64,000 bases of DNA from an uncultured Nitrososphaerota archaeon (GTDB lineage Archaea; Thermoproteota; Nitrososphaeria; Nitrososphaerales; Nitrosopumilaceae), in assembly GCA_963701075.1 (NCBI GenBank), contig OY969559.1, positions 544,001 through 608,000 of the forward strand, read 5' to 3'. The notes beneath the pieces were generated by a model, which saw nothing but the letters and a program-made list of their open reading frames with translations, did not search any database and had not been told where the DNA came from. Shown piece by piece: positions 5,509 to 33,065 of the stretch; positions within the stretch are counted from its first letter, which is position 1; each line of letters opens with the position of its first letter. The position numbers were made by a program, and so were the translations under genes.

Positions 5509-6142
5509 ACCATATGTTATCTTGAATGCAGCTATGAGCATAGATGGAAAGATAGCTACACGTAAGGGAAAATCAAAATTTTCTTCAAGCAAAGATCTTG
5601 CGCGTGTTCATAGACTTCGTGGTAGTGTAGATGCTATACTAGTTGGAAGAAATACTGTATCTGTAGACAACCCCTCTCTTACGGTAAGACATGTAAAAGG
5701 TAGAAACCCAATTAGAATAATTCTTGATCCTAAAGCAACAATTTCTTCTAACTCAAAAATTGTAAAAACCTCCAAGAAGATCCCCACTATGGTAATAGTA
5801 TCAGAAATTGCACCAGCAAGGCATGTATCTCTTCTCACAAAGAAAGGATTGGAAGTGATCAAGTGTGGTAAAATCAGAATTGATCTCAAAAAACTGTTAT
5901 CGATCTTAGCAAAGCGAGGCATCAGAAAGATACTCGTTGAGGGTGGAGGGACAACTAACTGGTATTTCTTAAAAGAAAAACTAATTGATGAAATTATTGT
6001 AACTGTCACTCCATACGTGGTTGGTGGCAAAGAATCTATCTCCCTAGTCGAAGGACATGGATTTGACAATATATCATATCCCTTAAAACTAACGCACGTC
6101 AAAAAGGTGGGCGACGAGATAGTTTTACACTATATCACTTAG
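5495..6142 (+). CDS. arfC: 2,5-diamino-6-ribosylamino-4(3H)-pyrimidinone 5'-phosphate reductase (RibD C-terminal-like)
   Basis: AMSIDGKIA, DAILVG, DNPSLTVR, VEGGG. Confidence 0.88.
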   Translation: MANSKPYVILNAAMSIDGKIATRKGKSKFSSSKDLARVHRLRGSVDAILVGRNTVSVDNPSLTVRHVKGRNPIRIILDPKATISSNSKIVKTSKKIPTMVIVSEIAPARHVSLLTKKGLEVIKCGKIRIDLKKLLSILAKRGIRKILVEGGGTTNWYFLKEKLIDEIIVTVTPYVVGGKESISLVEGHGFDNISYPLKLTHVKKVGDEIVLHYIT

Positions 6143-6648
6143 TGTTTCAAGTCATCACGTAACTGATCAATTTTTACTTGCATTGCTTTTTTCAGCTTGT
6201 CATTTTTTGAAAGGTTAACAAGCTTTCCACAGGTAGGGCACTTGAAGGACAGGTCTAAAGCTTTTTCAAACGTTAATTTTTGACAGTCCATGTTGCCACA
6301 ATGATAAAAATCTGCAGAATTCTCATAATCGAGCCTTTGTTGTAGCCTCTCGACAATCTTTTTCTTCTGGTTTCCTATGAAATTGTCTACTTCGTCTCTT
6401 CTGGCTCTCCATCTGTAAACAAACCATCCTTTCTTTTCGTCCTTTACCCTTATTCCAGTTATCAGGGCTTTTCCAAAAAGGTCATACAGCACCTTTCTGA
6501 CAATGTTGATTCTAAGACCCGTAGAGTCTGCAATCTCCTCATCCGTTGCATCCTCTGTATTTAGTAGGGAACGAGCCACCTTTAGATATTCATCGCCGCC
6601 AATCAAGGCAGCTATTTTAACAAAAGGATCTTCATGCTCTACATTCAT
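6139..6648 (-). CDS. tfe: Transcription factor E (TFIIE alpha)
   Basis: wHTH (TDEEIA...VRKVLY...GWFVYRW) plus Zn ribbon (FKCPTCG). Confidence 0.9.
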   Translation of the reverse strand: MNVEHEDPFVKIAALIGGDEYLKVARSLLNTEDATDEEIADSTGLRINIVRKVLYDLFGKALITGIRVKDEKKGWFVYRWRARRDEVDNFIGNQKKKIVERLQQRLDYENSADFYHCGNMDCQKLTFEKALDLSFKCPTCGKLVNLSKNDKLKKAMQVKIDQLRDDLKH

Positions 6649-6675
6649 GTCAAAATCTTTCCTCTTCTCTCATAT

Positions 6676-7206
6676 TTAATCAATGGTTTTATTCATTACT
6701 CTTTTTCCCTTTTTTGTAGGAATTATTTCACGCTGCGCATTGCCAAGTTTCTTTTGTAGTTGTTTTCCATCTAGTATTCTATCAAGCAAGATGGCTAATG
6801 CCGATATTTCTGAATGAGGTTGGTTCCCTATCGCTATGTTATAATCTGCAATATCGTAAACTTCTCTTGGTACCTTTTCTGCCCCCACCACAACCAAGAT
6901 CTTGTCTTCTTTTTTTAGTTCAGTTTCTATCGTATTGATATTTTCACCATACATTGTTAGATGGACAATTTTGTACAAATCAGATTTCTTAGATCTGAGA
7001 GCTTTCTTCCAATCCTCAATGATTTCCACTTGAAAATCACCCCCCCACATTTTGTTTACTTTGGAAACAGTGTCTTTTATCTCTGGATTGGCGTCATACA
7101 TCAATATTTTTGATGCACCAAATGCTCTTGACACAAGGGCAACATGAGTGGTTACTCTGTCATCCCTTACCAATCTCTGGCCTATTCGTAAAACTTCAAT
7201 CTTCAT
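6676..7206 (-). CDS. trm56: tRNA (cytidine(56)-2'-O)-methyltransferase
   Basis: [36 protein letters not shown]. Confidence 0.93.
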
Positions 7207-8323
7207 GGTTGATTTTTATTTCTTGTTTTGCTATTTCATTTTTCTCATTCAATAAGGGATGATTTTCTAGTATGTTGTAAATGAGGTTCTCAAGGGCCGG
7301 AATGTTTTTGCCCGTTGCCGCTGATACGGGCAGACATTTTTTATTCTCTTTCAAGCCCAGTTGATCTGCCTTTTCAATAATCTCTTCTTCTGAAACCAAG
7401 TCTGACTTGTTTAGAGCAAAAATTATCTTATCTTGATTTACACCTATTTCATCAAGGGTAGACACGCAACTTCTGAACTTCTTTTTTAATTCTGGAAAGG
7501 GATCGCTTGAATCTATTACCACTATTACAATATCTGTGTAAACTAATTCCTCAAGAGTAGACTTGAACGCATCAATCATGTATGCTGGAAGCTTGCTTAT
7601 GAAGCCAACCGTGTCAGATATCAGTATCTCAGTACCGCGTAACACTATTTTTCTTGTGGTTGTTGAAAGGGTAGTGAAGAGCTTCGGACTTTCTTCTTTT
7701 TGCTCTCCAGTCAATGTGTTAAACAATGTAGTTTTTCCAGCCGATGTGTATCCAGCAAGAGAAATGGTCTTAAATCCAATTCTTTTTCTTGCCTGCCTGT
7801 GAAGTTCGCGCTGTTTTGACGACTTGACTAGTCTAGACTTGGTGTTATTCATTCTATTTTTGATATCATTATGGTACACGTCTACTTCGAATTTTCCAAT
7901 GCCCATAAAGCCTGGCTGCTCTCCCATCTTTGCAAGCCTTACCCGTTCCTTGGCTCTTGACATCTCGTATCTTAGATGGGCCAACTTGACTTGCAGCATT
8001 GATTCCGAACTTTTGGCTCTGCGTTGGAAAATTTCCAATATCAGCATTTCCCTGTCTAGAATTTTGGTTTTGAGAGTAGATGCAAGATTGTAATTCTGGC
8101 TGGGCCTTAGTATTTCGTCATATATTATAACATCTGGCCTTAAGGAACCGATAAACTCCTTGAGTTCCTCAACCTTTCCCTCTCCTAGTCCAAATTTAGA
8201 TCTGTTAAGGAATTTTTGTCGTATTATTTTTTTTATCTCATAGCCTGCGGCATCACAAAGAGCAATGGCCTCCTTGACAACGTCCTCTTTATCGTATGTT
8301 ATCAGGATGGCAGAATCTTTCAA
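7196..8323 (-). CDS. hflX: GTPase HflX
   Basis: [28 protein letters not shown]. Confidence 0.92.
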
Positions 8324-8348
8324 TATGTACAGTCCTTTTTTTCGTATA

Positions 8349-9404
8349 TCATTGCCTTCGCAGACTCTTTTCTATGGTCATATTCATTACGATTTCAGCA
8401 ATATCGCTGGCGTATTCCGCTATTCTACGTATGTTTTCGTTCATTCGCCTAACGCGGTATATCTCTTCGTCATCTCTGAGTGACTTGATGCTGTCTAGGA
8501 TTTTTTTTTCATACTTGGAAATTTCAGCGCTCTTTTCCACTGTACGCTCTGCCTGATTGAAATCCCTCTTGAAAAGAGATAGACAAGCTTCATCAAGCAC
8601 AGTTAGTGCAAATGTATTCAATTCCTGAATTGGTTCAAGTACTGACTTTTTGATAGGTTTTTTAAATTCTCGAAGATCCTTGGCTAATTCTGTGGCATGG
8701 TCTCCAACACGTTCAATGTTTTTAACAATTAATCTATAGCCCAGGCAATGGTGTGGGCTCTCTATTCCCATCTCCTTTAACATATGCTCGTTTTGAATTG
8801 CAATTTTTAGCTGTCGTATTATGTAGAAACTAAATCTATCAACTTCATCATCGCTATCGATAACTTCCTCTGCCAAGTCATAGTTGGCTTCTTCTAAAGC
8901 AAGTAATGCGTCATTTTGCATGGATTTTGCAATTATCAACATTCTCTTTAATGCACCATCCACTGAAAGCTCAAAGAGATTTATCAGAACCTGAATGGTA
9001 AGTCCCTCTGTTGAATCTGCAATGATCTCAGTACCCATTAAAATTCCCTTTACTGCCTCCTTGACAGCATTTCTCTGAGACGGTTTTAGTCTTCCAATTT
9101 TTGGTTTAACGTTTATGATGTTAAAGCCAAGCAAGTATAACGAAATAAGCTTCCTGATAATTACAGCGCCCTCATCCTCTGGTTTTATCTCAATAGTTGC
9201 ATCTTCTGTAACCACAGGTTTGTTGTGGTGCTTTAGTGGAACAATCTGCAATGTGGAAATTCCCTGTCGAACTACGGCCACTTGATCTCCCTGTTTTAAT
9301 CCCATATCGGCAACCCATTGTTTTGGAAGTGAAACAATATAGGAAGACTTGCCGGTGAACTGTATTTTTCTCATCTCTTCGGTATTTCCCATATAGTATT
9401 GCAT
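8349..9404 (-). CDS. Phosphate uptake regulator, AbrB + tandem PhoU domains
   Basis: [19 protein letters not shown] AbrB N-terminus; DDEVDR, ERVGDHA, RRIAEYA PhoU repeats. True start may be 9392. Confidence 0.88.
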
Positions 9405-9415
9405 TATGATCTGTT

Positions 9416-9447
9416 CTATATAGTTCTTCAGTTATACTATATAGTAT
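9416..9447. promoter_or_regulatory. Putative operator: CTATATAG boxes upstream of the PhoU regulator
   Basis: CTATATAG at 9416-9423 and a perfect 14-bp palindrome ATACTATATAGTAT at 9434-9447. Confidence 0.4.
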
Positions 9448-9497
9448 GATACTCATTATAAAAATAATTATGGGGCTTTGCAAATGACAAGTTAGAG

Positions 9498-9956
9498 ATG
9501 GACTCCATTTTGAAGATCAAGTATACCCTTGATGCTCTTTTTGGTATTGGTGTATCAAAATACCTGCCAAAAGATGTTAGATTCACTTATTCAAAAAAAA
9601 CTGGTAGAATCCAACATGTGTATCAAAATGATATGCTATTGTGTACATTACGAATAGACGGCGGGCTTGCAATCACTCCAAATTTTGCCCAAATGCTAAT
9701 GAAAAGCAAGAAATTTCGAGAAAACTGTGTGGAAGTAGACGATGATTCAAAGCCATTTGTTGAAAATGGTAACTCGGTCTTTTGCAGTCATATTACACGG
9801 TGTGGCAAGAATATCCTAATTGGCTCTGATGTTCCGGTTTTACACGGGAATAAAGTTATTGCCGTCGGTAGAGCCATTCTTTCGTCAAAAATGATGAGTT
9901 CTTTGAAGAGAGGGGTTGCTGTGAAGATCAGAGATAGTTTAAAAAGTCTAGATTGA
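9498..9956 (+). CDS. PUA-domain protein (TGT C-terminal-like)
   Basis: SKKTGRI, TLRIDGG, GNSVFC, AVGRA, GVAVKIR. Confidence 0.8.
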   Translation: MDSILKIKYTLDALFGIGVSKYLPKDVRFTYSKKTGRIQHVYQNDMLLCTLRIDGGLAITPNFAQMLMKSKKFRENCVEVDDDSKPFVENGNSVFCSHITRCGKNILIGSDVPVLHGNKVIAVGRAILSSKMMSSLKRGVAVKIRDSLKSLD

Positions 9957-9972
9957 GGAATATGAGTAGAAA

Positions 9973-20717: not shown

Positions 20718-20742
20718 AAAAGAAGACGATGGCTGACCGTAA

Positions 20743-20755
20743 TTTAAACATCGCT
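20743..20755 (+). repeat. attL core TTTAAACATCGCT
   Basis: Identical to 33053-33065; lies immediately upstream of the likely integrase start. Confidence 0.8.
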
Positions 20756-20773
20756 ATACCTAATGTCAAGCGT

Positions 20774-21886
20774 ATGTTAAATGAGAACGCACAAACTGAT
20801 ATCGTGGAGAAAAGTTTGCTGGTATTTGAAAAATATACCAGATCTAATGCTACAAGAAAGATGTATCGCTATCTCTTTGTAAGGTTTTTGAATTGGACTA
20901 AAATTAACGATGTGGATGGAATATTACAACTCAAGGAATCCTATCTACAACAATTAGTTGAAGATTATATTTTGTATATGCGAAAACAAATACTGCCAAA
21001 TTCATTCCAGCCTATTGTTGCATCATTAGAATTATTTTTTTCAATGAATGACAAGACCCTTAATTGGAAAAAAATCCGTAAGATGATACCTTCTCCTGTT
21101 AAGAAATCTGGATACAATGCTTGGCAAACAAAAGATATTGAAAAAATGCTTCAGCTTACCACATCCTTGAGAAACAAGGCTCTTCTTCACTTTCTTGCTT
21201 CTACTGCATGCAGGATAGGGGCAATATCGGAATTAAAGATAAAACATCTCTCTGACATGCCTGATAATTGCAAATCGGTATTGTTCTATGAGGGTACAAA
21301 CGAAGAATATGATGGATTTCTGACACCTGAAGCAAGTCAAATCATTAATGAATATCTAAACAAACGAAGAAAGGATGGCGAATATCTTAATGATGAATCA
21401 CCGCTTTTTAGAGCATCATACCAAGTAGGGGTACAAAAGGCTAAACCTCTTTCATTAAACTCGATTACCCAGATATTACACAGACTTGTCAAGCAAATTG
21501 ATACTAGAAAGAGGATTGGAAATAGGTTTAACGTAATGATGGCTCACGGATTTAGAAAGAGATTTGCTACGATCATCAAACTTGACAACAAGATAAGCTG
21601 GTCAGTTGGAGAAAGACTGCTTGGACACAAAACCTATCTTGAACGAGAATATTTCAGGCCAGTCAAGAATGAACTTTTTACAGAATTTAAGAAGATAATG
21701 CCTGATTTGATAATAGACCAGTCGGAGAAGCTAAGAGTAGAAGCACATCTCAAAGATGAACAAATGAGAAGGATAGAATCTCAAAAAGATGGTCTAATTC
21801 AGCAGCTCCAAGAACAGATTAAGGAAAATGAAAAAACTAAGACTAGCGTACAGAAGATATTAAATCATCTGAAGCTGGCATGCTGA
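20774..21886 (+). CDS. Tyrosine recombinase / integrase
   Basis: Catalytic R (ACRIGAI), HGFRK, LLGH, Y (EYF) and C-terminal coiled coil. The ORF track starts at 20729, outside attL; ATG 20774 is preferred. Confidence 0.92.
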   Translation: MLNENAQTDIVEKSLLVFEKYTRSNATRKMYRYLFVRFLNWTKINDVDGILQLKESYLQQLVEDYILYMRKQILPNSFQPIVASLELFFSMNDKTLNWKKIRKMIPSPVKKSGYNAWQTKDIEKMLQLTTSLRNKALLHFLASTACRIGAISELKIKHLSDMPDNCKSVLFYEGTNEEYDGFLTPEASQIINEYLNKRRKDGEYLNDESPLFRASYQVGVQKAKPLSLNSITQILHRLVKQIDTRKRIGNRFNVMMAHGFRKRFATIIKLDNKISWSVGERLLGHKTYLEREYFRPVKNELFTEFKKIMPDLIIDQSEKLRVEAHLKDEQMRRIESQKDGLIQQLQEQIKENEKTKTSVQKILNHLKLAC

Positions 21887-22464
21887 AATACCATTTTATT
21901 TGATACTTGTACGAAGAATTCTCTATGCATTGCAGGATCTGATTGCTCGAGTAGTTCGAATAAATTCTTAATTTTGCTCAAACCTGAATCCCCAAATCTC
22001 TTAATCGTTTTCTCAGTGATTTTTGCCGTATTGCCAGAAATTACTGTTAGTGTCAATATGCGATAGGTCTGGAACCAATCAAGAGTTTTCCTGACCAATA
22101 TTTTCATAAGACTAGATTTAATCTTCTTATTTTCACGAGTATTTTTTTTATGAAAATCTAGTGTGGACTTGACCGTGTCCGTTAATTTATCCAAAATATT
22201 AAGTTCATTTTCTAACCAGTACTGAATACTATCGTTCACCGTTTTAAGTCCAGAAGGTATCCAATACTTGCCTTTTTCTTTTTTTGTTGGTGGTGTAAAC
22301 TCTACTATTCCTTTTTTTACCATTTTCTTAAGATGTTCATTGAAAGTTCTAGTAGTACATTTCTTGATAGTCTGAACTTCATCAAACAATTCGTTGTAAC
22401 GGAAACTTTCTTCTCTAATCAAAGATCTAAGAATTGCATCTTCAAAATCTAAATTTTCACTCAC
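21865..22464 (-). CDS. Winged-helix transcriptional regulator
   Basis: FRYNELF...TRTFNEHLKKMVKKGIV...KYW wHTH pattern; convergent with the integrase. Confidence 0.7.
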   Translation of the reverse strand: MSENLDFEDAILRSLIREESFRYNELFDEVQTIKKCTTRTFNEHLKKMVKKGIVEFTPPTKKEKGKYWIPSGLKTVNDSIQYWLENELNILDKLTDTVKSTLDFHKKNTRENKKIKSSLMKILVRKTLDWFQTYRILTLTVISGNTAKITEKTIKRFGDSGLSKIKNLFELLEQSDPAMHREFFVQVSNKMVFQHASFR

Positions 22465-22514
22465 TATACTTGAGGTATAGCCGATTATTTATTTAACTAC
22501 TGAGATGATGAGTT

Positions 22515-22655
22515 ATGGCACAAATACACATAAAGGATCAAACGATCGACCGCATTGAAAAAATAACAAGAAAAAAATTTACTCGAGGTGGTGATCGATT
22601 AATCAATGAGGTTATTGACATTCTAGAAATGAGGAAAAATAATGAAAACATCTAA
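22515..22655 (+). CDS. Small ribbon-helix-helix-like protein (46 aa, not in ORF track)
   Basis: MAQIHIKDQTIDRIEKITRKKFTRGGDRLINEVIDILEMRKNNENI: beta-alpha-alpha pattern, overlaps the next ORF. Confidence 0.6.
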   Translation: MAQIHIKDQTIDRIEKITRKKFTRGGDRLINEVIDILEMRKNNENI

Positions 22656-22884
22656 GCCTAATTTTCCATTCGAGGATCCTAAGTACATTGATGATTCTAT
22701 TAACACAGAAATATGCCCTTCTTGTAATTTGTCTTTTTCAGAACATACCAACCATGAGATTGTAAAATGTGCATTAGACGAGCTAAGAGGTGGAAAGAAG
22801 CGGACTATTGACTTGACTGATCTGGAAAATAACGAATGGGTATGTGAAAAGTACCCGTCTAATAATCAAAATTGCGATCCATAG
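22642..22884 (+). CDS. Small putative Zn-binding protein
   Basis: CPSC..S.SEH.....C motif. Confidence 0.5.
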   Translation: MKTSKPNFPFEDPKYIDDSINTEICPSCNLSFSEHTNHEIVKCALDELRGGKKRTIDLTDLENNEWVCEKYPSNNQNCDP

Positions 22885-22898
22885 CAAAGAAAGGAGGA

Positions 22899-23063
22899 TT
22901 GAGTACAATATCCACTGATTCATTCTCGAATTTAACAACGATTACAATAACCGCTGAGACTCGCAGGAGATTAGAGGTATTATGCAAGAAAGATCAAGAT
23001 TTTGACAGTGTGATAAACAAGCTTATTTTACTCTCGTCTGACAAATTGGAGGATTTTTGGTGA
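22899..23063 (+). CDS. Ribbon-helix-helix (CopG-like) protein
   Basis: TTITITAETRRRLEVLCKKDQDFDSVINKLI; TTG start with a purine-rich AAGGAGG just upstream; directly precedes the putative rep gene. Confidence 0.7.
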   Translation: MSTISTDSFSNLTTITITAETRRRLEVLCKKDQDFDSVINKLILLSSDKLEDFW

Positions 23064-23890
23064 GTAACGGATCAGTAACACATCGAGGTCACGGATCAGA
23101 GTATGATATTGAACAGTTTTACAAAAGGGCTCTATCTATATGTGAAACTGGAAAGAGACCGTTTTGCTTTAAGGATTTTGATGATATCAGCCCAGGCAAC
23201 TTTAGGCAATATGTTCACAGATCAGGAAGCAAGATAGAGATTGTAAAAAAGGGAAGGCCAACACTGTACAAAGTTAGAGGAATTGAACTTGCAGGCGATT
23301 CCCATAGAATAACGAATAGGGTAACGGGGGTTAATCCAGAATTTGAACATCTACTAGAATCGCTCAGAGACCAACCTCCAATGATTCATGATATTCATCT
23401 AAAATTTGAATCTGAGTTGCATTCTAGTCTTGTTTCTAAAGGGTTATCGGTCAATCCAACTAATCACGCCATAGAGAACATAAGATATGCCGCACTTGAC
23501 AACAATATCAAAACCAAGATCCTGGTGTATCCATATACAACCCAGATTATCATAGGGTGTACTTGCAAACCAATTATCTATGATGCTTCAGGAATTTGGT
23601 CTCTATTTTCATATCTTTCTCAGGTACAATTTCATTTATCAGAACTAACAAACCATCAAGTCGTAATTCCAGAGGTAAAAACATGGATTGTTACACGTTA
23701 TGATTTCAATAAAGATGGTTCGGAATCAGTTATTGGAGGGCCTTTTTGCATGGAATTTCAAGATGTTTCAAATGGACTTATACGATTTTACCTAAAGAAG
23801 ATGCCAAACGGTGAAAGGATTCCAAGACTTGAACAAACTAGGACTCCTAACAAGTCGATTTCAGATATTGTGCAGGAGATCCTGTCGTAA
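23057..23890 (+). CDS. Putative Rep_trans/MOB_T-like replication initiator or relaxase with N-terminal HTH
   Basis: WIVTRYDFNKD, IRFYLK and RLE occur in the same order as the Rep_trans motifs; copG-rep gene order. By-eye inference. Confidence 0.5.
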   Translation: MVSNGSVTHRGHGSEYDIEQFYKRALSICETGKRPFCFKDFDDISPGNFRQYVHRSGSKIEIVKKGRPTLYKVRGIELAGDSHRITNRVTGVNPEFEHLLESLRDQPPMIHDIHLKFESELHSSLVSKGLSVNPTNHAIENIRYAALDNNIKTKILVYPYTTQIIIGCTCKPIIYDASGIWSLFSYLSQVQFHLSELTNHQVVIPEVKTWIVTRYDFNKDGSESVIGGPFCMEFQDVSNGLIRFYLKKMPNGERIPRLEQTRTPNKSISDIVQEILS

Positions 23891-23906
23891 TGAACAATTG
23901 AGCCAA

Positions 23907-24137
23907 ATGACCCCACCAAAGCCTCCCTCGTTTAAAGCTAAAACGGGAAGAAAGACAAAACGTGAAAGGATCCAACAAGACGGAAGATTAATGACAAACG
24001 CCATTCTGGGAGATAGTCCTTGGGAAGCTTCTCTTTACGCAGGATGTGGCTATGAATATGCGGTGAAAAAATTCCTAGAGTTTGGATTCATTTTTGATCA
24101 TAAAACACGACTATGGATCAGGATCAAACGATTCTAA
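23907..24137 (+). CDS. Small basic hypothetical protein (possible HTH)
   Basis: ORF continuing the rep operon; Lys/Arg-rich N-terminus. Confidence 0.45.
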   Translation: MTPPKPPSFKAKTGRKTKRERIQQDGRLMTNAILGDSPWEASLYAGCGYEYAVKKFLEFGFIFDHKTRLWIRIKRF

Positions 24138-24154
24138 GTAAATGTAGAGACTCA

Positions 24155-24385
24155 TTTTTACGTAAAATACGTAAATTTAGGCACGTAATGTTACAGGTTT
24201 TAGGGAATGGAGTCAGGATATGAAATTTTACGAAAAGTTCGTAAATTTAGGCACGTGATTTTACGGAATTTTCACAAAATGTGAAAATTTAGGCACGTGA
24301 TTTTTCACATTTTTGGTGAACTGGAAATAGAGGTTATGAAATTTTACCTATTTTGGGTAAATTTAGGCACGTGATTTTACACATT
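24155..24385 (+). repeat. Array of four hairpin + AAATTTAGGCACGT units (candidate origin)
   Basis: Cores at 24173, 24243, 24285 and 24359, each preceded by a 3-nt-loop hairpin; partial fifth core TTTAGGCACG at 24604. Confidence 0.9.
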
Positions 24386-24745
24386 TTTATGAGTAGAAGG
24401 GGGAATGAAATTTATGAATACAAAACATCGTCCCGAGTTTCGTTCCTAGAATAGGGGGATCACCAGGGAAAAATAGACAAAAAAGAAGGTGTGATACCGA
24501 TCCCGAGTTTTAGATAGCGTTAATGGAAGATATCTACGAAATTTTTGAGTAATTGTGGGGGTACTGATCTGCGTTTTATTATTTTATGTCATATCATCCT
24601 AATTTTAGGCACGAAAATATGGCATCATATGACCGAGGTAAAATTTCTGCTTGAAAGACATACTAACTTCGGTATAAAAAAAGATGAGATACGATCTAGA
24701 ATTTGTGGTCTTGCATGTGTATGATCAGAGATAATTTCTAAAACA

Positions 24746-24916
24746 TCAAACATCAGTACTTTTTGCAAGGTAAATTTTGTCATTTTCTTCTACGAACATG
24801 ATAGTCTCTCCTTCCTGAAGATGATATTTCTCTCTGACCTTCTTTGGTATGGTTACCTGGAACTTGTAGCTTATGGTCGTCATTCCAAGTATCTCTTTCT
24901 TTGAATCCTTTATCAT
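24746..24916 (-). CDS. AbrB/MazE/SpoVT family DNA-binding protein
   Basis: TTISYKFQVTIPKKVREKYHLQEGETIMF; start uncertain (24883, 24916 or 24958). Confidence 0.85.
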   Translation of the reverse strand: MIKDSKKEILGMTTISYKFQVTIPKKVREKYHLQEGETIMFVEENDKIYLAKSTDV

Positions 24917-25090
24917 TATTACTTGCCTTGATTGTAATGAATGTAAAGCAAGATTCATTAATTAGACCCAAGAAAGTAAAGAATTCTTGGAAAGTAAAGA
25001 TAATTTCATTCATGGATTAAGAGATTCCAGAGTTGGGATGAAGATAGAACCGTACCAAGTTCTATTTGTTAAATTTTACAATCGAGAACT

Positions 25091-25744
25091 ATGAAGCTTA
25101 ATCTCAATTATTCTGTCACTAGTACTTGCAAGCTCTGTCATAGGATATGGTGTACAAGCATCTGCTCAGATGACAGGTGGCGGGATCTGTGGTAATCATC
25201 CATGTGCACCAGGAGAGGTCTATCCGCCAAGTACCCCTTCATCAGGAACTGGAATTACAGTCTCAACTGACAAACCGTCATATAATTATGGTGACACCAT
25301 TACCATATCGGGTACAACGAGTGTTTATCTTGGTGATACCCCTCTTACGCTTATTCTAAGAAATCCAGTTGGAAATATTGTCATAGCAACACAACTCACA
25401 GTGGGAACAGACGATACCTTTTCTGAGACTGCGGTTGCTACAGGTGCACTGTGGCAATCTGCTGGTACGTATACAATATCTGCCATATATGGTAACACAA
25501 ACATGTCTGCTACAACCACATTCCAGTTCTCAGGTTCTTCTTTACTCCATCAAGTCCAAGTACTGTACCAAACGCTGGCACAAATGCTACTATTCAACAA
25601 CCACCATCTTCTACCACCCCGCAATCAAAGATTCCCGCTTGGGTCAAAAACATCTTCATCTGGTATGGCAGGGGCAGCATCTCAGACGATGAATTGATAG
25701 GTGCCATACAGTTTCTTATACATCAGGGAATAATCAAAGTCTGA
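25091..25744 (+). CDS. Secreted/surface protein with Ig-like domain and thaumarchaeal C-terminal IPxWVKN domain (two apparent frameshifts)
   Basis: Signal peptide MKLISIILSLVLASS after correction at ~25099; STDKPSYNYGDTITISG; after a shift at ~25542 it reads IPAWVKNIFIWYGRGSISDDELIGAIQFLIHQGIIKV*. Confidence 0.75.
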
Positions 25745-25915
25745 AATTTTTGAATTACAAAACATCAACCTGAATTTCAGAAAACTTGATTCTCTTTGCG
25801 GTATCTATGGCATCACTCATACACAATTAATATGTAATACTAGTAAAAAATCATGATAACGATTACTAATGATTTGTACATTAGAGAAGAAAACTAAACA
25901 GAATTAGTTTTGCAT

Positions 25916-27355
25916 CTACTCAGTAATATAATGACGATTCTTAGGCCACATTTTGAATATTGGTTTATACTTATCCATTTTCAAGTAATTCTTTACAATT
26001 TTTATCTTGTTTTCTAGTTTTTCTGAACCTTGTTGGAATTGTGCATTTTCCAGCATAATGTATAATTCGTCTTTTGTTTTGTTTAAAATAACATATGTTG
26101 CAATAATTATTCTCGCATAATCCATCATCAAGAAGCCAAATTCATCCTTATTCTTGAATCGTTTTTTTATTGCCTTTTCAGTTTTATTACTCATTTTATC
26201 GCCATGAACATATTTGCTTCTTACATCATATGCAGTCAACATATCATCATACACCTTCTTCGAATCTAGTCCGATTAAACCTAATAATTTTGAAGAATTT
26301 AACGCAAATCGTAACTTTTGATCTCCCTCGGATTTAATCAATAATGCTTCGATAGCCATAACTGCATATGATACTGAAATTCGGATTAAATGAATTGATT
26401 TTAATCCATTCATATATCGTGATAATGATATTTCTAGTTCATTATCTTCCCTGTAATGGTTAACTATAGATCTAGTTAATCGTTTTTCCATTACTCCATA
26501 AAATAGCTTAAGATATTCTATCTCATTTTCTTTAATTCTTGCGTAGTATTGTAATCCTGGATCATGATAAAACCCCAATCTATACGTGCCATGAAATGTA
26601 CGTTCTATGTTTGAAGATTTGTTACTTATTCCAATACAATCAGGCGATGATAATTTGAATAATGTAAGAATTAATTCGATTTTTTTTAATGTTTCAAAAC
26701 TGTGATCATATTTCAAATCTTGTTTATACGTAAATTCTAATATGCAAAAACATTGCTCTACTACCTCATTATAATCATCCCATTCCTCTGGTTTAACTTC
26801 GATCTCAAAATCTTTCTTGTTGGCTTTTCTTATTCTAAGATATTTGTTTACGATGATTTCGTTTTGTTCTATCATAATTCCTGAAAGATAAGATGTTGTT
26901 TTGATTATCGGCAGTTCATCTTTAATCGAGTTAATAAGGTATTTCACTAAATTCTTAACATTAAAAAATTTTGTATCATGCTCATAACAAAAAACAAATA
27001 ATGCTTTTTCTACAAACGCTCCAAAAAGAAATTTATCTTCGTTCTTACTAATTTTGTTTATTCTTTCATTCATTTTTTTGTAAAAATCATCTTGTTTCAA
27101 ATCATTATGTGCAACGTAAAGGAGTCGATCCCAATCAATTTTTTCTTTAGTATCTGTAAATCTGTCAATAGAATACCATTTGTGAAACTTTGACCATCTT
27201 ACATTTGGAATTTTATAATATTTTTTACCCAGGGGGTGGTTTCTTTTTTTCAAATCTAGAACTAAATTTCGTAGATATGTGGTATACCTATACAGATCTA
27301 TCTCAATCTGTTTTAATTCTTGATCTGATGAAGACATGGAGTCATTATCTTTCAA
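25916..27355 (-). CDS. HEPN-domain protein (ApeA-like), putative anti-viral RNase
   Basis: AIEALL and RSKYVH (Rx4H) HEPN motifs in the C-terminal half. Confidence 0.75.
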   Translation of the reverse strand: MKDNDSMSSSDQELKQIEIDLYRYTTYLRNLVLDLKKRNHPLGKKYYKIPNVRWSKFHKWYSIDRFTDTKEKIDWDRLLYVAHNDLKQDDFYKKMNERINKISKNEDKFLFGAFVEKALFVFCYEHDTKFFNVKNLVKYLINSIKDELPIIKTTSYLSGIMIEQNEIIVNKYLRIRKANKKDFEIEVKPEEWDDYNEVVEQCFCILEFTYKQDLKYDHSFETLKKIELILTLFKLSSPDCIGISNKSSNIERTFHGTYRLGFYHDPGLQYYARIKENEIEYLKLFYGVMEKRLTRSIVNHYREDNELEISLSRYMNGLKSIHLIRISVSYAVMAIEALLIKSEGDQKLRFALNSSKLLGLIGLDSKKVYDDMLTAYDVRSKYVHGDKMSNKTEKAIKKRFKNKDEFGFLMMDYARIIIATYVILNKTKDELYIMLENAQFQQGSEKLENKIKIVKNYLKMDKYKPIFKMWPKNRHYITE

Positions 27356-27463
27356 TTGTTTTTATTGATAAAGTAATCTGAAGTTTTAGAATTAGTATAA
27401 CAATAGGCCAGAACAAAATTGGCCTGATTCAAGATTATATACAATGTTCTGCTTCGTAATCTA

Positions 27464-28834
27464 TTGAGCATATTTTCTAAAAAAATCGATTCAATAACCC
27501 GAGAAGACTTGGAATCTCTGATAAGAGAATCTGAACGAGAGAGCATACAACTTGATTATAAACAAGGCATAAATCCTTCAGAAAATGGCAAACATGATTT
27601 GGTGAAGCTGGTAGTAGGAATGGCAAACACAGAAGGGGGATACATAATTTTTGGAATTAATGAAGACAAACAAAAGGGAATACCGACTAAAATGGAAGGA
27701 ATAGATCCATCTGTTGGAGGACAAAAGGTTGACGAATGGCTAGAAAATGTCATCAATCCCCACATAAGTCCAAGAGTTGTAATTAGGATTAAAACTATAG
27801 CACTTGAAACCAAAATAGCATTAGTTTTGTGGGTACCGCAAAGTACAAGAAAGCCGCACATGTCGACCCTTGATAATGACTTTAGGATTTACCGACGTTA
27901 TAATACTCAGTCACTGCCTGCCAGTGAAGGAGAATTAAGAGAAATGTATCTTGCATCTAATAAAATTGAAAGAGTAAGAGAAGATTTCATATTGAAAAAA
28001 AATCTTACTAATGTCTCAAATAAGGAATTTGGTCTAACAACAAATTCTGATAACCTCCTGTCAAAGCTTGGCATAGAAAATAAGTATGAATATCCAATTG
28101 TGACGCTTTCATCCTGCCCTAGGTTTCTAGAAGAGAAAGTAAATTTCTCATCTGACACTTTTCAATCATGGCTGTCGAAAAATTCTTTTACAAAAATCCA
28201 GAATCAAGATATAGAAATTTTTCGTTATAATCCACCTATTCTAGAACAAAATTCGATAACAATATTGCGTAAGATGGGAATGAATGATAAAATATTGGAA
28301 TACCTTGAAATCCAAAGAAATGGATTTATTGAACAATGTAAAACATTACAACTTATTCATTCTGATGGAAACAAATTTGTATTAAATCTTGGGAGATTAA
28401 CTGTTGCACTTTGGGCATTTTTATATTATGTAAAAAATTTCTATCAACAAATTGATTATTTAGATGAATTTTCTATTTTTATGTCCATTAGAAATTCTAA
28501 TCGCCTTGAACTATGCGGTTTGTTAGGACTATCCGAAAGAGGACACCCGTATTCTACTGAATCAGATGACCTTTTTAGATATCTGGATATTACCCCCATG
28601 TATACTGCCACTACGTATGATCCAGTTTTTCCTACTACTCAAAAGGAACAAAATCTATCACATTCAGTTAATTTAACTATGAATAATCTCACGGATGAAG
28701 AGATCTATGACATTGTGAAAAATTTTGCAGATAGGATAAGTAATGCATTTGGTTTGGCTAAAGCACATTGTTATAATAACGATGGAACATTTGTTAATAG
28801 ACACTTAGACTTTTACAACAAACTACTATCTTAA
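27464..28834 (+). CDS. Schlafen AlbA_2-domain protein with uncharacterised C-terminal domain
   Basis: RESIQLDYK, MANTEGGYIIFGINE, KPH, IYRR. Confidence 0.85.
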   Translation: MSIFSKKIDSITREDLESLIRESERESIQLDYKQGINPSENGKHDLVKLVVGMANTEGGYIIFGINEDKQKGIPTKMEGIDPSVGGQKVDEWLENVINPHISPRVVIRIKTIALETKIALVLWVPQSTRKPHMSTLDNDFRIYRRYNTQSLPASEGELREMYLASNKIERVREDFILKKNLTNVSNKEFGLTTNSDNLLSKLGIENKYEYPIVTLSSCPRFLEEKVNFSSDTFQSWLSKNSFTKIQNQDIEIFRYNPPILEQNSITILRKMGMNDKILEYLEIQRNGFIEQCKTLQLIHSDGNKFVLNLGRLTVALWAFLYYVKNFYQQIDYLDEFSIFMSIRNSNRLELCGLLGLSERGHPYSTESDDLFRYLDITPMYTATTYDPVFPTTQKEQNLSHSVNLTMNNLTDEEIYDIVKNFADRISNAFGLAKAHCYNNDGTFVNRHLDFYNKLLS

Positions 28835-28881
28835 CGCAGTATACTTGTGATCATTGAAGAAGATTCAATTATTTATGACAT

Positions 28882-29184
28882 TCAAACAGGTCTCAGAAGC
28901 TCTTCGATTTTTGTGAGGATTACTTCATTTTCCACAGTTTTTTTTCTTACCTCTTCATTCATCTGTTCTTGATTTTTCTTGTATGTTCTGAGTAATTCAT
29001 AAATTGAAAGCCTTTCCTTTGCACGATCCTCAGTGGTTTTGAAAAGATTATGATCTGCCCAGAATCGTTGGTGACATTTACTACACATCGGTTCAGATAC
29101 TCCAGATGAAAAGACACGTTTACACGTAGGTCTGGGACACTGGACATATCTTGGTTGATGGGTACGCATCCAAATACCGCCCAT
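28882..29184 (-). CDS. Zn-ribbon + coiled-coil protein
   Basis: CPRPTC...CSKC, helical C-terminus. Confidence 0.65.
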   Translation of the reverse strand: MGGIWMRTHQPRYVQCPRPTCKRVFSSGVSEPMCSKCHQRFWADHNLFKTTEDRAKERLSIYELLRTYKKNQEQMNEEVRKKTVENEVILTKIEELLRPV

Positions 29185-29245
29185 GTTATATAGATAACAT
29201 TTTTTTGTATTTTAATGTTATTGGATAACAGAACTTTTAATATAT

Positions 29246-29266
29246 ACACTACTAGTATAGTAGTGT
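29246..29266. promoter_or_regulatory. Inverted repeat operator ACACTACTA-GTA-TAGTAGTGT
   Basis: Perfect 9-bp arms between a TATA-like TTTAATATA and ATG 29281; extra half-site AGTAGTGT at 29272. Confidence 0.6.
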
Positions 29267-29280
29267 GGAGAAGTAGTGTA

Positions 29281-29923
29281 ATGCAAATAGAATTAGATCA
29301 AAAGAAAATAGCAAGAAGCGGAGGAAGCACCGTATTGTACCTATCTAATGATGCTAAAAAATACATTCACGAAGGTGACCTTGTAGATTATCAAGTAATT
29401 CTAGACGATAACGTAGTAAAGATATTCATAACAAAAAAGCTGTTCAATTTTACTCTTGAAGATATCAAGAATCTCGTAAAAAAACATGAATTTGAAATAG
29501 AATATGATAAAACACTAGATCATATTCTGGTATTTAACGCAATAAAAAATCATCTTTCATTAAGACTATACTAAGAATGTTAATGAAAAAATATCTCCAG
29601 CAAATATTGCACTTTCTTTAACATGGCCTGACGTGAATGATTATGAAAAATACAAACATGTAACAGAACAGATAGATCAATTAAAAAATAAATACGATTT
29701 GATTACAAGAACTGAAGGAGATTTGGATGTGATTAACATACTGAAAGAACCATCTAGATATAAAGTGGACATAGTAGAGGCATTAAAACTACTTAAGAAA
29801 GCTGGCAAGAAAATAGGCTTATCAGCTGTAATTCGATTTGATGATGGAAAAGACGATCTTAATCGTATATCTAGTGCCCTCAACGAATTAATGACCTTAG
29901 ATTCCAAGATCTCTTTTCAATAA
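29281..29923 (+). CDS. AbrB-like N-terminal domain protein (apparent frameshift at 29565)
   Basis: KKIARSGGSTVLYL...EGDLV AbrB signature; removing the extra base in AG[a]CT fuses it to ORF 29633..29923. Confidence 0.7.
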
Positions 29924-30511
29924 GTGTGCTAGCCGTAACATTATAGGTGTAACCGTAGGTTTTCTATCTAGACCGCTTATTTCTGCTTCAATGATAGTGT
30001 CAGATGAAATAATTTTCTCATCCCCATTAAGTTTAGAAACTATTATCACTACAACACGAACTCCAATTTTTTTAAAGAATTGCTTCCATTCATCAATCTT
30101 TTCAGTTTCATCTTCTTTACACACTATTATTCCATGTGTAGCCACTTTGAAAATCATCTCTGATTCTTTTGATATACGACCTGGGCCATCGCCAATTGCA
30201 ATAACATGACTTTGAGAAAGACTCTTAAATTCTTGAACCGCGGTTGTTACCTCTTTTGTTGTAACATTCGTTCGTTTACGGGAATCTCTATCTTCTTTTG
30301 TCATATTGCCAATGATAAATTCAATTGTTTGAGACCATAAATCCAATTCTTTGTGATCTGCATCTACGGCTATATCTTGTAAGGCTCTTGTAATACGTAC
30401 CGCAAATGTACTTTTTCCAGAATTGGGTGGACCACCAATAATGATTCTAATTGAGGATTTTTTCTCTATGCCTAGCTCTTTTCTGTGTTTGTGATGACTC
30501 ATCTTAACCAC
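29897..30511 (-). CDS. P-loop NTPase resembling the ATPase domain of Csx3-AAA fusions
   Basis: IIIGGPPNSGKST Walker A, IGDGPGRIS, ATHGIIV, W..F motifs. Confidence 0.65.
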   Translation of the reverse strand: MVKMSHHKHRKELGIEKKSSIRIIIGGPPNSGKSTFAVRITRALQDIAVDADHKELDLWSQTIEFIIGNMTKEDRDSRKRTNVTTKEVTTAVQEFKSLSQSHVIAIGDGPGRISKESEMIFKVATHGIIVCKEDETEKIDEWKQFFKKIGVRVVVIIVSKLNGDEKIISSDTIIEAEISGLDRKPTVTPIMLRLAHLLKRDLGI

Positions 30512-30557
30512 AATGAGTGTAGTAATCCTTTATATATTAGGTTTTAATGCCTATAGC

Positions 30558-31607
30558 ATGGCTGTTAGGGCCAATTCACGCACACGAAAGATGGAAATTC
30601 TGCAATTTACCTTACTTGCATCTGAACTAGTTTGGCGGGGGCGAACTCCATTTTTTGCCATAAATTCCAACAGATTTGGTAAACCATGGGAAGTTGAAAT
30701 AAACTATGGCCACGGTGAAGTAAAAGATATCCGAAAAAGAACAGAAAACGGTCCAAGCCGAAAGATCTTCCGGCAGTACCTTCCAGAACTACTCAAAGAG
30801 CGACTACTTACTAGAATAATTACAAAAGATAAAAAATCAAAATATTATTCAATTACTCCTCTTGGAATCATACATTTAATAAAATCTGAAATGTTTTTTG
30901 ATGGCGTCAGATATCCTCATCCTGAACGTAATTATGTATTATTGAGACTGGAAACATTTGCTGAACAAAATGTAAAGCCCTATAAGAGTATAATTTTTGA
31001 AAATGAGAAATTTTTCAAGTCTGATATCGATTTATTGAATGATATGTGGAAATCTCATCTTATTAGTCTTAGAGAAGAAATAACGCATGTTTTTACAAAC
31101 GTTGACATAATACAAGAACAAATGAATACAGAATATGAGTGGAATCACATGGAATACTATATTACAAATGGATATTCTGACGGAAATAGAATAAGATTAG
31201 CAAGCTTTGATTTAGAAAATAATAACTATGTAAAAATAACAGAATTAAATCAACTTCCTTCAGTAAGAGGCAGTGATTCTTCTGAACGTGAAGATAACGC
31301 TTTGATCCTAGATTCAGATCAGTTTAATCATTATCTGGCAAATCTTATGCTTTGTTCATTAATTTACGATAGTATAATGGCACACTATGATATAGCTAGA
31401 TATAGAAAAGTAAAGTGGGGTAGGAAAAAAGAATCAACAAAGACCATGGATGAGGAATTCAAAGAAGATCTGAAAAATATCCCGGAATATTTTTTGCGAA
31501 TACTCTTCTTATTTAGTAAACATATTTTACGCATAACGCAAGACCAATATCAATTAACAGTCAGATTTAGTGATAATTTGACTAAAACTCAATTCATAAA
31601 AAACTGA
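30558..31607 (+). CDS. Hypothetical protein with N-terminal winged helix
   Basis: QYLPELLKERLL...KYYSITPLG wing motif; TTTATATA at ~30528 favours ATG 30558. Confidence 0.6.
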   Translation: MAVRANSRTRKMEILQFTLLASELVWRGRTPFFAINSNRFGKPWEVEINYGHGEVKDIRKRTENGPSRKIFRQYLPELLKERLLTRIITKDKKSKYYSITPLGIIHLIKSEMFFDGVRYPHPERNYVLLRLETFAEQNVKPYKSIIFENEKFFKSDIDLLNDMWKSHLISLREEITHVFTNVDIIQEQMNTEYEWNHMEYYITNGYSDGNRIRLASFDLENNNYVKITELNQLPSVRGSDSSEREDNALILDSDQFNHYLANLMLCSLIYDSIMAHYDIARYRKVKWGRKKESTKTMDEEFKEDLKNIPEYFLRILFLFSKHILRITQDQYQLTVRFSDNLTKTQFIKN

Positions 31608-31625
31608 TTAGTATATCATGATTCC

Positions 31626-31772
31626 ATGATCGGTATACTTCCTTATTTTTACTTAAGGAAGAGCGACAGAAATCGAGCTAAAAAATGTTTGATATTAGGA
31701 ATTGTTGCTATTCCTGTCTCGTTTGTGGTTGGATTGTTCGCTATTGTAGCGAGTATTTTGATCAATCATTGA
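31626..31772 (+). CDS. Small membrane protein or gene fragment (48 aa, not in ORF track)
   Basis: MIGILPYFYLRKSDRNRAKKCLILGIVAIP..., one hydrophobic helix. Confidence 0.4.
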   Translation: MIGILPYFYLRKSDRNRAKKCLILGIVAIPVSFVVGLFAIVASILINH

Positions 31773-31878
31773 CCCATACTCAAAGCCCACTTGGACTAGA
31801 ATATCTGATCTAAAATTTATAACTATAATTTAGCTGGTTTGTAATTGTTTATAATCAATTAGTAATTTAGTTATCAAG

Positions 31879-32505
31879 GTGTACCATAACTACTCTTTAC
31901 TAACTGTCAAAAAATTATTTAGTCTTCATAATAATCACTGTGCATTTCTTGGATGTAAGCAGGAATTAATTACAACAGACAAGAAAATCAATGTTTCAGA
32001 TATATGTCACATTGAAGGAGGAGAAGAGGATTCACCTCGATATAATCCTAGTTTGGGTCCAGCAGAATTAGATGATTACGAAAATTTAATCTTAATGTGT
32101 AAGGTTCATCATAAAATAATCGATACTGATACCATGACCTTCACCGTATCTTATTTAAAAAAATTAAAGATTGAACATGAGAAAAATCAAAATGGACAAG
32201 TATATTCAATTTCAGATGAAGTGGCAAAAAGGATCATTGCAGAACAAATGACTCAAGTAAATGTGAATGCGGGTTCTGGAATTCAAAATATTACTCAAAA
32301 AGGTGATATTATTCATTATGATAATCCTCCTTCTTCAGATGGTCCTTTGATGATATTTTATCAGATACCTAGGAATTGCATATTATGCGGGAGTATGAAT
32401 ATTCGACATATGGAGGGATTTCAAATGAATGGTCGTGAACGCAGAAATAGAACATGTAGAGATTGTGGTGCTATTATGATTTTAGCGGACGGAATAGGAG
32501 GATAA
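31879..32505 (+). CDS. HNH endonuclease with C-terminal Zn ribbon
   Basis: CAFLGC, ICHI, PRY, NLILMCKVHHKIID; C-terminal CILCG...CRDCG. Confidence 0.85.
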   Translation: MYHNYSLLTVKKLFSLHNNHCAFLGCKQELITTDKKINVSDICHIEGGEEDSPRYNPSLGPAELDDYENLILMCKVHHKIIDTDTMTFTVSYLKKLKIEHEKNQNGQVYSISDEVAKRIIAEQMTQVNVNAGSGIQNITQKGDIIHYDNPPSSDGPLMIFYQIPRNCILCGSMNIRHMEGFQMNGRERRNRTCRDCGAIMILADGIGG

Positions 32506-32622
32506 ACTCCAACTGCCATCTTTCAATCATGCCAAAATTAGTTAGACGAATTATTGTTATAGATAGACGGTAAATACGAACTAAGAATTAATTTAAGTAG
32601 TAAATCCATTACCTAGAACTGC

Positions 32623-32928
32623 TTGAGCTGGAAGTCGTTTAGAGATGATTATCTTACTAATCTTTTCATCATTTGGCACATAATATTAACTGGAATCAAT
32701 CTTCTGAGTCATGCTTCACCATTAATCAATAGTTTTAGAACCTTGCTATGGGCCAATGATGGATGGCTTGTAATAATAATGCCAATTGCGATAACGGAAA
32801 TTTACTACCAAGTTATGATGATACGAAACAATCCAGAATTTTTTGAAAAAGTCAGACATGGAATAGAAAATATGCTCTTGCCCCGTTTATTTGGGCACGA
32901 GTTTTTACAGATATCATTCTTGCCTTAG
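32623..32928 (+). CDS. Small membrane protein
   Basis: Two hydrophobic segments. Confidence 0.4.
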   Translation: MSWKSFRDDYLTNLFIIWHIILTGINLLSHASPLINSFRTLLWANDGWLVIIMPIAITEIYYQVMMIRNNPEFFEKVRHGIENMLLPRLFGHEFLQISFLP

Positions 32929-33052
32929 TAGGAGTTTCCCTTATCATAGGCGACCAATTTCCTGGTTCCATCATAGACATAAACAAGTATAATTTTTGGG
33001 ACGTGTTCTCATATGTGGCTATTTTACTTTCTTTAACTTACGTTTTGCAAGG

Positions 33053-33065
33053 TTTAAACATCGCT
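33053..33065 (+). repeat. attR core TTTAAACATCGCT
   Basis: Identical to 20743-20755; just upstream of adenine deaminase. Confidence 0.8.

Follow-up and report, generated by a model that had tools for sequence, protein, structure and literature searches.

The Rep_trans initiators (PF02486; RepC, RepD, and RepDE of pT181-family plasmids; RepSTK1; PDB 4CWC, 4CWE, and 4CIJ) possess a crescent-shaped catalytic domain of two five-strand modules that has been likened to the TATA-binding protein (TBP) (Carr et al. 2016, PMC4797284). In RepDE, the catalytic Y191 lies on strand 10 together with R189 and K193, and the metal is held through D46 (strand 1), D142 (strand 6), and E214 (strand 11) (Carr et al., PMC4797284). 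The MOB_T relaxases RelSt3 and Orf20 carry an N-terminal helix-turn-helix (HTH), a flexible linker, and a Rep_trans-type domain, in that order, and RelSt3 has a bind site separate from its nic site (PMC9371924). In archaea, the Rep-Arvir proteins (DUF7845, PF25227; RepSNJ2, PAV1 ORF528, and the Reps of pRT1 and pAMT11) are described as putative rolling-circle initiators with a non-HUH TBP fold and a winged helix, whose relation to Rep_trans is visible by structure alone (Wang et al., NAR 2026, PMC13107129). Krupovic et al. 2019 (PMC6563490) report that many cryptic integrated elements of Thaumarchaeota had no replication protein that could be found, and name a winged HTH (wHTH) protein as the possible initiator in the smallest one. 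Here we describe an open reading frame (ORF), called rep below, in a stretch of 64,000 nucleotides (the window; positions 544,001 to 608,000, forward strand, of contig OY969559.1, assembly GCA_963701075.1) from an uncultured Nitrososphaerota archaeon of the Nitrosopumilaceae. With a probability that we put at about 0.55, rep would encode a Rep_trans-like (TBP-fold, non-HUH) tyrosine nickase of a new lineage not recognizable by sequence, which acts as the rolling-circle initiator of an excised 12.3-kb element of this soil archaeon, a Nitrosotalea-like ammonia oxidizer.

Conserved residues of the rep protein

The putative nicking initiator gene occupies positions 23057..23890 of the window (+ strand, stop codon included). 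In the program ORF list it starts with TTG and encodes 277 aa; an identical database protein of 276 aa uses the GTG at 23060, one codon after the TTG. A preliminary description of this DNA had pointed to the unannotated ORF and to three motifs in it. When the codons were checked, all were present at the quoted places: WIVTRYDFNKD at residues 210–220, GLIRFYLK at 240–247, and PRLEQ at 256–260.

Three alignments were used: A1, of 26 close relatives of the rep protein; A2, of 96 homologs; and A3, of eight Rep_trans proteins, four of them close to RepC. The members of A2 were hand-picked, roughly full-length sequences from word-indexed and HMMER searches, with fragments and long fusions excluded. 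Residues R140, D142, A144, D146, R189, Y191, K193, R212, and E214 were invariant in A3. The rep family showed the blocks (H/R)214-x-(H/D)216-x-(N/G)218-x-D220, R243-x-Y245-x-K247, and R257-x-E259, whose order and internal spacing equal those of R140-x-D142-x-A144-x-D146, R189-x-Y191-x-K193, and R212-x-E214 in A3. Block 1 reads TRYDFNKD in the rep protein and TRLDLAFD in RepC.

Among the 96 homologs, Tyr245 was retained in 95, K247 in 92, and R243 in 78; R257 was found in 94, E259 in 93, and D220 in 94. W210 was present in all 96, H111 in 94, and D112 in 77 (Asn in 18 more). The first block was looser, with His in 42 and Arg in 10 at position 214, His in 78 and Asp in 14 at position 216, and Asn in 52 and Gly in 40 at position 218. 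The expectation of the preliminary description that the motifs follow the Rep_trans order TRxDxAxD, YxK, RxE was borne out for the order of the blocks, while the first motif proved variable; likewise, the Tyr, Lys, Arg, Glu, and last Asp are kept nearly throughout, and the R/D/D set as a whole is not invariant. Its proposal of the Tyr of RFYLK as the nucleophile fits the alignments: Tyr245 (codon 23789..23791, + strand) is the candidate, and in the best-supported stretch of the hhalign comparison of A2 with A3, for whole proteins and for domains, IRFYLK stands opposite IRIYNK, which pairs Y245 with Y191 of RepC.

Positions 244, 246, 256, and 258 are hydrophobic or small, so that the conserved polar residues would share one face of the sheet. 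The candidate metal ligands, equated with those of Rep_trans by order and strand position, are E259, which lies in an R-x-E like that of E214; residue 216, which is Asp here but mostly His in the family; and H111/D112. The prevalence of His at positions 214 and 216 suggests that the metal site of the family contains His.

In the 1.9-Mb genome, the pattern [RH]x[DH]x[NGA]xD...RxYxK...RxE was matched by 1 of 1701 six-frame ORFs of at least 150 aa, namely rep, a count that is illustrative only because the pattern was composed after inspection of the family; RxYxK...RxE alone was matched by 5 of the 1701. The motif set is unlikely to be a chance product mainly because it is conserved across the 96 homologs, which is a stronger argument than the ORF count.

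Predicted fold

An earlier AlphaFold2 model built from A1 had a predicted local distance difference test (pLDDT) score of 72, with a poor C-terminal (catalytic) half, and Foldseek returned nothing for it at E<=1e-3. The model from A2 reached a pLDDT of 90.6 and a predicted template modelling score of 0.68. It comprises a winged helix (residues 18–73; 23108..23275, + strand), which is presumed to recognize the origin, a disordered linker of low confidence (residues ~80–93), and a domain of two strand-helix modules (residues 94–277; 23336..23887, + strand). By DSSP, the second module has four long strands and one strand of two residues. In a structural search of the PDB, winged-helix chains aligned over model residues 11–77 with Z of 6–8.4 (best root-mean-square deviation (rmsd) 2.1, 59 residues aligned), which agrees with the HTH-like N terminus claimed in the preliminary description.

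A Foldseek search of the PDB returned 21 matches at E<=1e-3, with TBPs (probability ~1.0, E from 4.8e-5) at the head of the ranking. Among viral models, the matches included TBPs of viruses and several proteins of Inoviridae. In VIA-align, TBPs aligned over residues ~101–275 with Z of 6.3–7.0, and the staphylococcal Rep 4cwe_A aligned weakly (Z 5.6, rmsd 4.7, 141 residues aligned, 14% identity), with model residues 104–276 opposite residues 39–301 of the chain. A structure search with RepSNJ2 is reported to have given TBPs and an inovirus Rep_trans protein (Wang et al. 2026, PMC13107129); the viral matches of the rep model show the same pattern, and we count this in favour of a Rep_trans-like protein. 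The C-terminal domain of the model forms a TBP-like sheet of two modules, which is also how Rep_trans initiators are folded, as the fold check proposed in the preliminary description had anticipated.

TBPs are the best structural match to this domain, yet their identity to it is 6–10%. The rep protein also differs from TBPs in its patchy, mobile distribution (36 of 301 genomes), in the conserved Tyr, Lys, Arg, Glu, Asp, and His on the face of its sheet, and in its fusion to a winged helix. The TBP model of Pfam (PF00352-type) did not match the rep protein.

Relation to described families

Like Rep_trans proteins, the rep protein is predicted to form a TBP-like crescent of two pseudo-symmetric modules, in which the Tyr of R-x-Y-x-K lies on the next-to-last long strand. 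The last strand would bear the Glu of R-x-E, the strand after a long helix reads x-D-x-small-x-D, and the first strand has a conserved residue that is acidic or His. Its gene, too, adjoins hairpin or palindrome DNA. Unlike them, the family shows no significant sequence or profile match to Rep_trans and has a shorter catalytic domain, with the four-long-strand second module; by order and strand position, His replaces the D142 equivalent in 78 of the 96 homologs, and H111 would stand at the place of D46. Its DNA-binding part is a winged helix at the N terminus, where theirs is helical and C-terminal; it comes from an archaeal host, and from an integrative element that carries a tyrosine integrase gene.

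The order of the domains (DNA-binding, linker, catalytic) is that of MOB_T proteins such as RelSt3, and not that of pT181-type Reps or of Rep-Arvir. MOB_T proteins (RelSt3 of ICESt3, Orf20 of Tn916, NicK of ICEBs1) share with the rep protein the N-terminal HTH-type domain, the flexible linker, the Rep_trans-type domain, and residence in integrative elements. The element of rep differs from theirs in having no recognized conjugation genes, and its protein has a winged helix instead of an XRE-type HTH and does not match PF02486.

Rep-Arvir proteins resemble the rep protein in being archaeal, in combining the TBP fold with a winged helix, in their linkage to integrases and small DNA-binding genes, and in the variable palindromes and conserved element near the gene (PMC13107129). 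The arrangement is reversed, however: in Rep-Arvir an N-terminal catalytic domain of ~300 aa precedes a central wHTH, whereas in rep the wHTH (residues 18–73) comes first and the catalytic domain has ~180 aa. The rep protein has 277 aa against 528–660 aa, and the bacterial-like RxYxK against KHYYM (PMC13107129). PF25227 matched neither the rep protein, nor the 96 homologs, nor any of the 301 genomes of the class, while the Haloferax volcanii control was positive and HHPV3 ORF11 and PAV1 ORF528 scored 362.5 and 188.5 bits. Full-length rep members are confined, among the sampled genomes, to this same class in which DUF7845 was found in 0 of 301. When compared with six DUF7845 domains, the family gave an hhalign P of 0.071, at their residues 66–105, away from the catalytic K281-H-Y283. 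DUF7845 against Rep_trans gave P 0.24, so that hhalign is nearly blind and has little power at such distances.

No model of Pfam (at E<=1), PHROG, or NCBIfam matched the rep protein, and the ESM Atlas held no usable match for it. In the Pfam scan of the 96 homologs at E<=0.1, all that appeared were isolated matches of low score to unrelated families, and 15 longer family members had no Pfam match at E<=0.01. PF02486 found nothing in the host genome, with a positive Bacillus subtilis control and with RepC at 41.7 bits (cut-off 29.6). As matches to the PF02486 and PF25227 models were sought and not found, the rep protein is filed in neither family; it would function, as we see it, like the proteins of both without belonging to either as now defined. 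A tblastn search of the phage collection with RepC gave no match. No paper describing the rep family was found in the literature; PMC13107129 mentions Thermoproteota homologs of DUF7845, in lists that lie outside the present comparison.

The integrated element and the position of rep

The 13-mer TTTAAACATCGCT occurs twice in the 1.9-Mb genome, at 20743 and 33053 of the window. Three genomes of the same genus that are without the region have one copy of TTTAAACATCGCT at an uninterrupted site, where the L44e ribosomal-protein gene (end ~20717) runs straight to the gene at ~33000. The shared junctions and the empty sites in the three congeners define an element of ~12.3 kb at 20743–33052, with the attL core TTTAAACATCGCT at 20743..20755 (+) and the attR core TTTAAACATCGCT at 33053..33065 (+). 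The attL core lies in the first codons of a gene for a tyrosine integrase of 385 aa (20729..21886, +; PF00589, E 2.7e-10; phrog_216 integrase, 2e-13; archaeal XerA-like model, 4.4e-15, below its cut-off). More exactly, it falls within codons 5–9, so that the first nine integrase codons are partly host-derived. In the excised circle, the 5' end of the integrase gene would be swapped for sequence from the right end of the element, in which no in-frame start was found before Met16; the swap recalls the excision-dependent operon reconstruction of SNJ2.

The gene order of the element is integrase, a divergent gene for a 199-aa protein, small ORFs, a DUF7557 gene, rep, 855 bp without a convincing gene, an AbrB/MazE gene on the − strand, and cargo. 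Among the element ORFs scanned with Pfam and NCBIfam, no further replication gene was recognizable. The lack of another such gene, together with the position of rep near the integrase, is counted in favour of an initiator role.

A tblastn search of 54 related loci with six integrases found an integrase in 16 of them, in each case on the strand of the rep homolog and upstream of it. Where 2 kb or more of upstream sequence was available (12 loci), 10 loci had one, five of these being self-hits of the queries. PF00589 was confirmed by Pfam in four of the loci (L001, L002, L004, L006) and not in L003.

Contigs from four soil-metagenome runs of two studies bridged both junctions; one of these runs may be the source of the assembly. 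None of the sequencing runs for the element is listed with RNA.

Family size and distribution

When 1.84 billion representatives were searched exhaustively with HMMER, 295 clusters matched at E<=1e-3; the number fell to 151 at E<=1e-10 and to 47 at E<=1e-30. Of 306 candidates from the word-indexed search, 30 were relatives at E<=1e-3, and all the named ones were hypothetical proteins of Thaumarchaeota. The family was found at E<=1e-5 in 36 of 301 sampled genomes of the class and in 3 of 26 genomes of the genus, with one copy of rep in the host genome. Such patchiness is typical of mobile genes and is counted in favour of a role in a mobile element. In a phylum-wide sample of 301 genomes, full-length matches were confined to the window's own taxonomic family (7 of 43 genomes), and two more matches were weak and limited to the winged-helix part.

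In several genomes of a sister family (G170, G185, G286, and G197), rep is present as fragments with internal stops, one contig (G197:C5) carrying as many as four partial copies; elements of this kind are decaying or rearranged. A contig of 3.4 kb (CAZJUY010000072.1, locus L005) binned as 'uncultured Chitinophaga sp.' carries a thaumarchaeal-type integrase fragment and a rep homolog of 38% identity, and is probably mis-binned.

Candidate origin DNA

Downstream of rep lie four tandem units (24145..24388, +), which form a candidate Rep-binding or origin region. Each unit consists of a perfect hairpin with a stem of 6–10 bp, followed by an invariant box TTTAGGCACGT(G/A)A. The stem sequences differ between the four units, each being self-complementary. 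Folded as single-stranded DNA, 24145–24388 had a z of −4.8 (+ strand) and −5.9 (− strand), and none of 200 shuffles was as stable. A variable palindrome beside a conserved element is also the layout of the pT181 and SNJ2 origins (PMC13107129). There are seven copies of TTTAGGCACG in the genome, five of them here. A fifth, solitary box (24600..24616, +), in the loop region of an imperfect larger hairpin at 24588–24634, is a speculative candidate for the nick site; the fold of this hairpin was not significant (z −1.4, equalled by 18 of 200 shuffles). Rfam gave no family at E<=1 in 23800–25200. The idea that the units are small RNA genes or promoters was dropped, as nothing supported it. One extra copy of TTTAGGCACGTG was noted far from the element, at G000:C1:399909.

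Element-specific repeats lie just downstream of rep in the window element and in two related loci, which we likewise count in favour of an initiator. In L057, about nine head-to-tail repeats of 10–11 bp (CACAGATTAxA and variants) at 2300–2400, ~70 bp past the end of the rep homolog, are a textbook iteron array; in L055, repeated modules stand just downstream of the homolog. An ORF of 108 aa with a GTG start (23811–24137, +) runs over the 3' end of rep in a different frame. Its match to L001 is limited to the first 42 residues, those of the overlap, and it is probably not a gene.

Proposed mechanism and alternative explanations

The mechanism that we propose derives from homology and context, apart from the att repeats and the empty sites, which were observed. 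The tyrosine integrase would excise the element at the 13-nt att core. The N-terminal winged helix would then bind the element-specific repeats beside rep, here the four hairpin-plus-box units at 24145–24388, and the TBP-like domain would nick one strand nearby, Tyr245 becoming covalently joined to the 5' phosphate. The site of this reaction would be a concave face with R243/Y245/K247, R257/E259, D220, D216, and H111, on which a divalent metal could be held by E259, D/H216, and H111/D112. The free 3'-OH would prime rolling-circle replication by host enzymes, and the same chemistry would close the circle.

More tentatively, and at slightly less than even odds, the family may be a third independent lineage of TBP-fold tyrosine nickases beside Rep_trans/MOB_T and Rep-Arvir, and the missing initiator of those small cryptic integrated elements of ammonia-oxidizing archaea that carry an integrase. 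The metal site of the family would consist largely of His (H111, H214/H216), with D220 and E259, that is, an HUH-like chemistry on a Rep_trans scaffold, and the int-rep cassette, with att at the start of the integrase, would couple excision to replication. If rep is such an initiator, the family (295 representative clusters, unannotated in Pfam, PHROGs, and NCBIfam) would supply the replication protein for a sizeable share of the elements of ammonia-oxidizing archaea that were left without one in the 2019 survey, and the newly recognized archaeal non-HUH rolling-circle enzymes would gain a second family unrelated in sequence. That the bacterial RxYxK/RxE signature is retained in the rep family bears on the kinship of Rep_trans, MOB_T, and Rep-Arvir. 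The compact int-rep-origin cassette is, moreover, a candidate backbone for genetic tools in ammonia-oxidizing archaea.

A number of results weigh against a Rep_trans-like initiator. No sequence method places the rep family in Rep_trans. The 96 homologs gave no match to PF02486, or to PF25227, at E<=0.1, and PDB profile searches with A1 and A2 returned no Rep_trans chain, only chance-level ubiquitin-like rows. In the hhalign comparison of A2 with A3, P was 0.074 for whole proteins and 0.025 for catalytic domains, a weak similarity. In favour of the match, its score of 19.5 was reached by none of 40 column-shuffled controls (maximum 17.3); a reversed control, at 16.9, was close. When extended, the alignment placed WIVTRYD opposite strand 8 of RepC and not opposite strand 6 (TRLDLAFD); on topology we prefer strand 6, as the strand that follows the long helix. 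Structurally, TBPs outscored 4cwe_A (Z 6.3–7.0 against 5.6), all of these Z values being in the range that the tool calls common; 4cwe_A was not among the top rows of the Foldseek PDB search or of the wide PDB structural search, and Rep_trans was not among the 50 rows of the latter, which winged-helix matches dominated. The proposal of the preliminary description, a divergent archaeal non-HUH Rep_trans-like initiator or relaxase, is supported by the fold and the conserved residues, and lacks a PF02486 match, strong profile similarity, and a Rep chain that outranks TBPs.

The origin and the state of the element raise further objections to the same reading. For a rolling-circle origin, it is unusual that a putative recognition unit occurs four times. 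The non-coding DNA downstream showed no blastn conservation among relatives, and no comparable repeat array was found in six loci or in the syntenic region of L002. None of 256 pattern matches in IMG/VR encodes a rep relative. No circular contig was present among 22 metagenome loci or 8 short genome-derived loci, and contigs of the four soil-metagenome runs showed neither circular nor empty-site joints, with the element as deep as its flanks, the contig result being a weak point because contigs drop rare forms.

A serious rival, although an unlikely one in our estimate, is a protein that binds DNA without cleaving a strand. It would either bind iterons and melt the origin, as initiators of the theta type do, or regulate the element as a repressor or in the manner of partition proteins. 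Double-stranded DNA is bound by winged helices and by TBP-like saddles alike, the C-terminal domain finds its best structural matches in TBPs, membership in Rep_trans is not significant by sequence, and the repeat arrays beside rep, with their period of 10–11 bp in L057, resemble classical iterons; initiation by a wHTH protein has also been proposed by analogy with IncP-1 Reps (Krupovic et al. 2019, PMC6563490). What speaks for a catalytic protein is that the near-invariant Tyr, Lys, Arg, Glu, Asp, and His, on alternate strand positions and with the block spacing of Rep_trans, resemble an active site, and that there is no PF00352-type TBP signal. Clearly less probable is a MOB_T-like mobilization relaxase that nicks an origin of transfer (oriT), the transfer being carried out by a co-resident conjugative element. 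RelSt3 and Orf20 show the same succession of HTH, flexible linker, and Rep_trans-type domain (PMC9371924), and thaumarchaeal conjugative elements exist (PMC6563490); set against this, the element ORFs scanned gave no Pfam match to conjugation genes (coupling protein, type IV secretion), several ORFs matching nothing, and rep is the only recognizable replication gene. The ICEBs1 relaxase NicK is reported to serve replication too, so the roles of initiator and relaxase need not exclude each other.

It is improbable that rep is an unrelated cargo enzyme or defence component, for example, a nuclease on a TBP-like scaffold. The element does carry defence-like Schlafen/AlbA_2 and HNH_2 genes, but rep keeps a fixed place beside the integrase at the end of the element, while the cargo differs completely between elements. 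Least probable is a divergent Rep-Arvir protein of the RepSNJ2 type in place of a separate lineage: the archaeal host, the TBP-like fold with a winged helix, the integrase-bearing element, and the downstream hairpins would suit it (PMC13107129), whereas the PF25227 results, the hhalign match away from the catalytic motif, the reversed domain order, the smaller domain, and RxYxK in place of KHYYM all speak against it.

Other genes of the element and related loci

Directly upstream of rep, a gene of 63 aa (22872..23063, +) overlaps the start of rep by 7 nt. Its sole family match is DUF7557 (24.3 bits against a cut-off of 25, E 2.1e-5), and it has no PDB relative by sequence; a ribbon-helix-helix protein is plausible and is consistent with its strand-helix-helix pattern. 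The ribbon-helix-helix gene named in the preliminary description would be this ORF. The copG-rep layout named there also holds in so far as a small DNA-binding gene lies upstream, the family of which varies: DUF7557 here and in L006 (38.4 bits), AbrB/MazE-like in L001 and L002, and no match in L003.

Divergent from int-rep is the gene for the 199-aa protein (21865..22464, −), a possible regulator with sub-threshold wHTH matches (GMT-wHTH, 0.016); tblastn found no relatives of it in the related loci. An AbrB/MazE-type DNA-binding gene (24746..24958, −; PF04014, E 4e-8) closes the replication module and is 85% identical to a gene at the same position in L002. L002, an element of Nitrosotalea devanaterra, is syntenic with the window element, with rep, a non-coding stretch, abrB (85% identity), and a gene for an MG2-domain protein.

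The cargo (25916–32928) appears defence-like. It includes genes for a Schlafen/AlbA_2 protein (27464–28834), an HNH_2 endonuclease (31879–32505), and a small P-loop NTPase (29897–30511, −), and large ORFs without a family (25916–27355, −; 30513–31607). Contigs of all four soil-metagenome runs differed from the window by single-base indels at 25098 (base missing), 25544 (G inserted), and 29565 (base missing). The window assembly may hold frameshift errors in the ORFs 25170–25697 and 29215–29574, and the MG2-like ORF of 175 aa is probably longer in reality. In L006, int-rep is followed directly, at 4905–9966, by genes for an MT-A70 methyltransferase, an ORC/CDC6-like ATPase fused to SIR2, and a CARF-like protein; L006 and the window element have a common backbone and different defence cargo.

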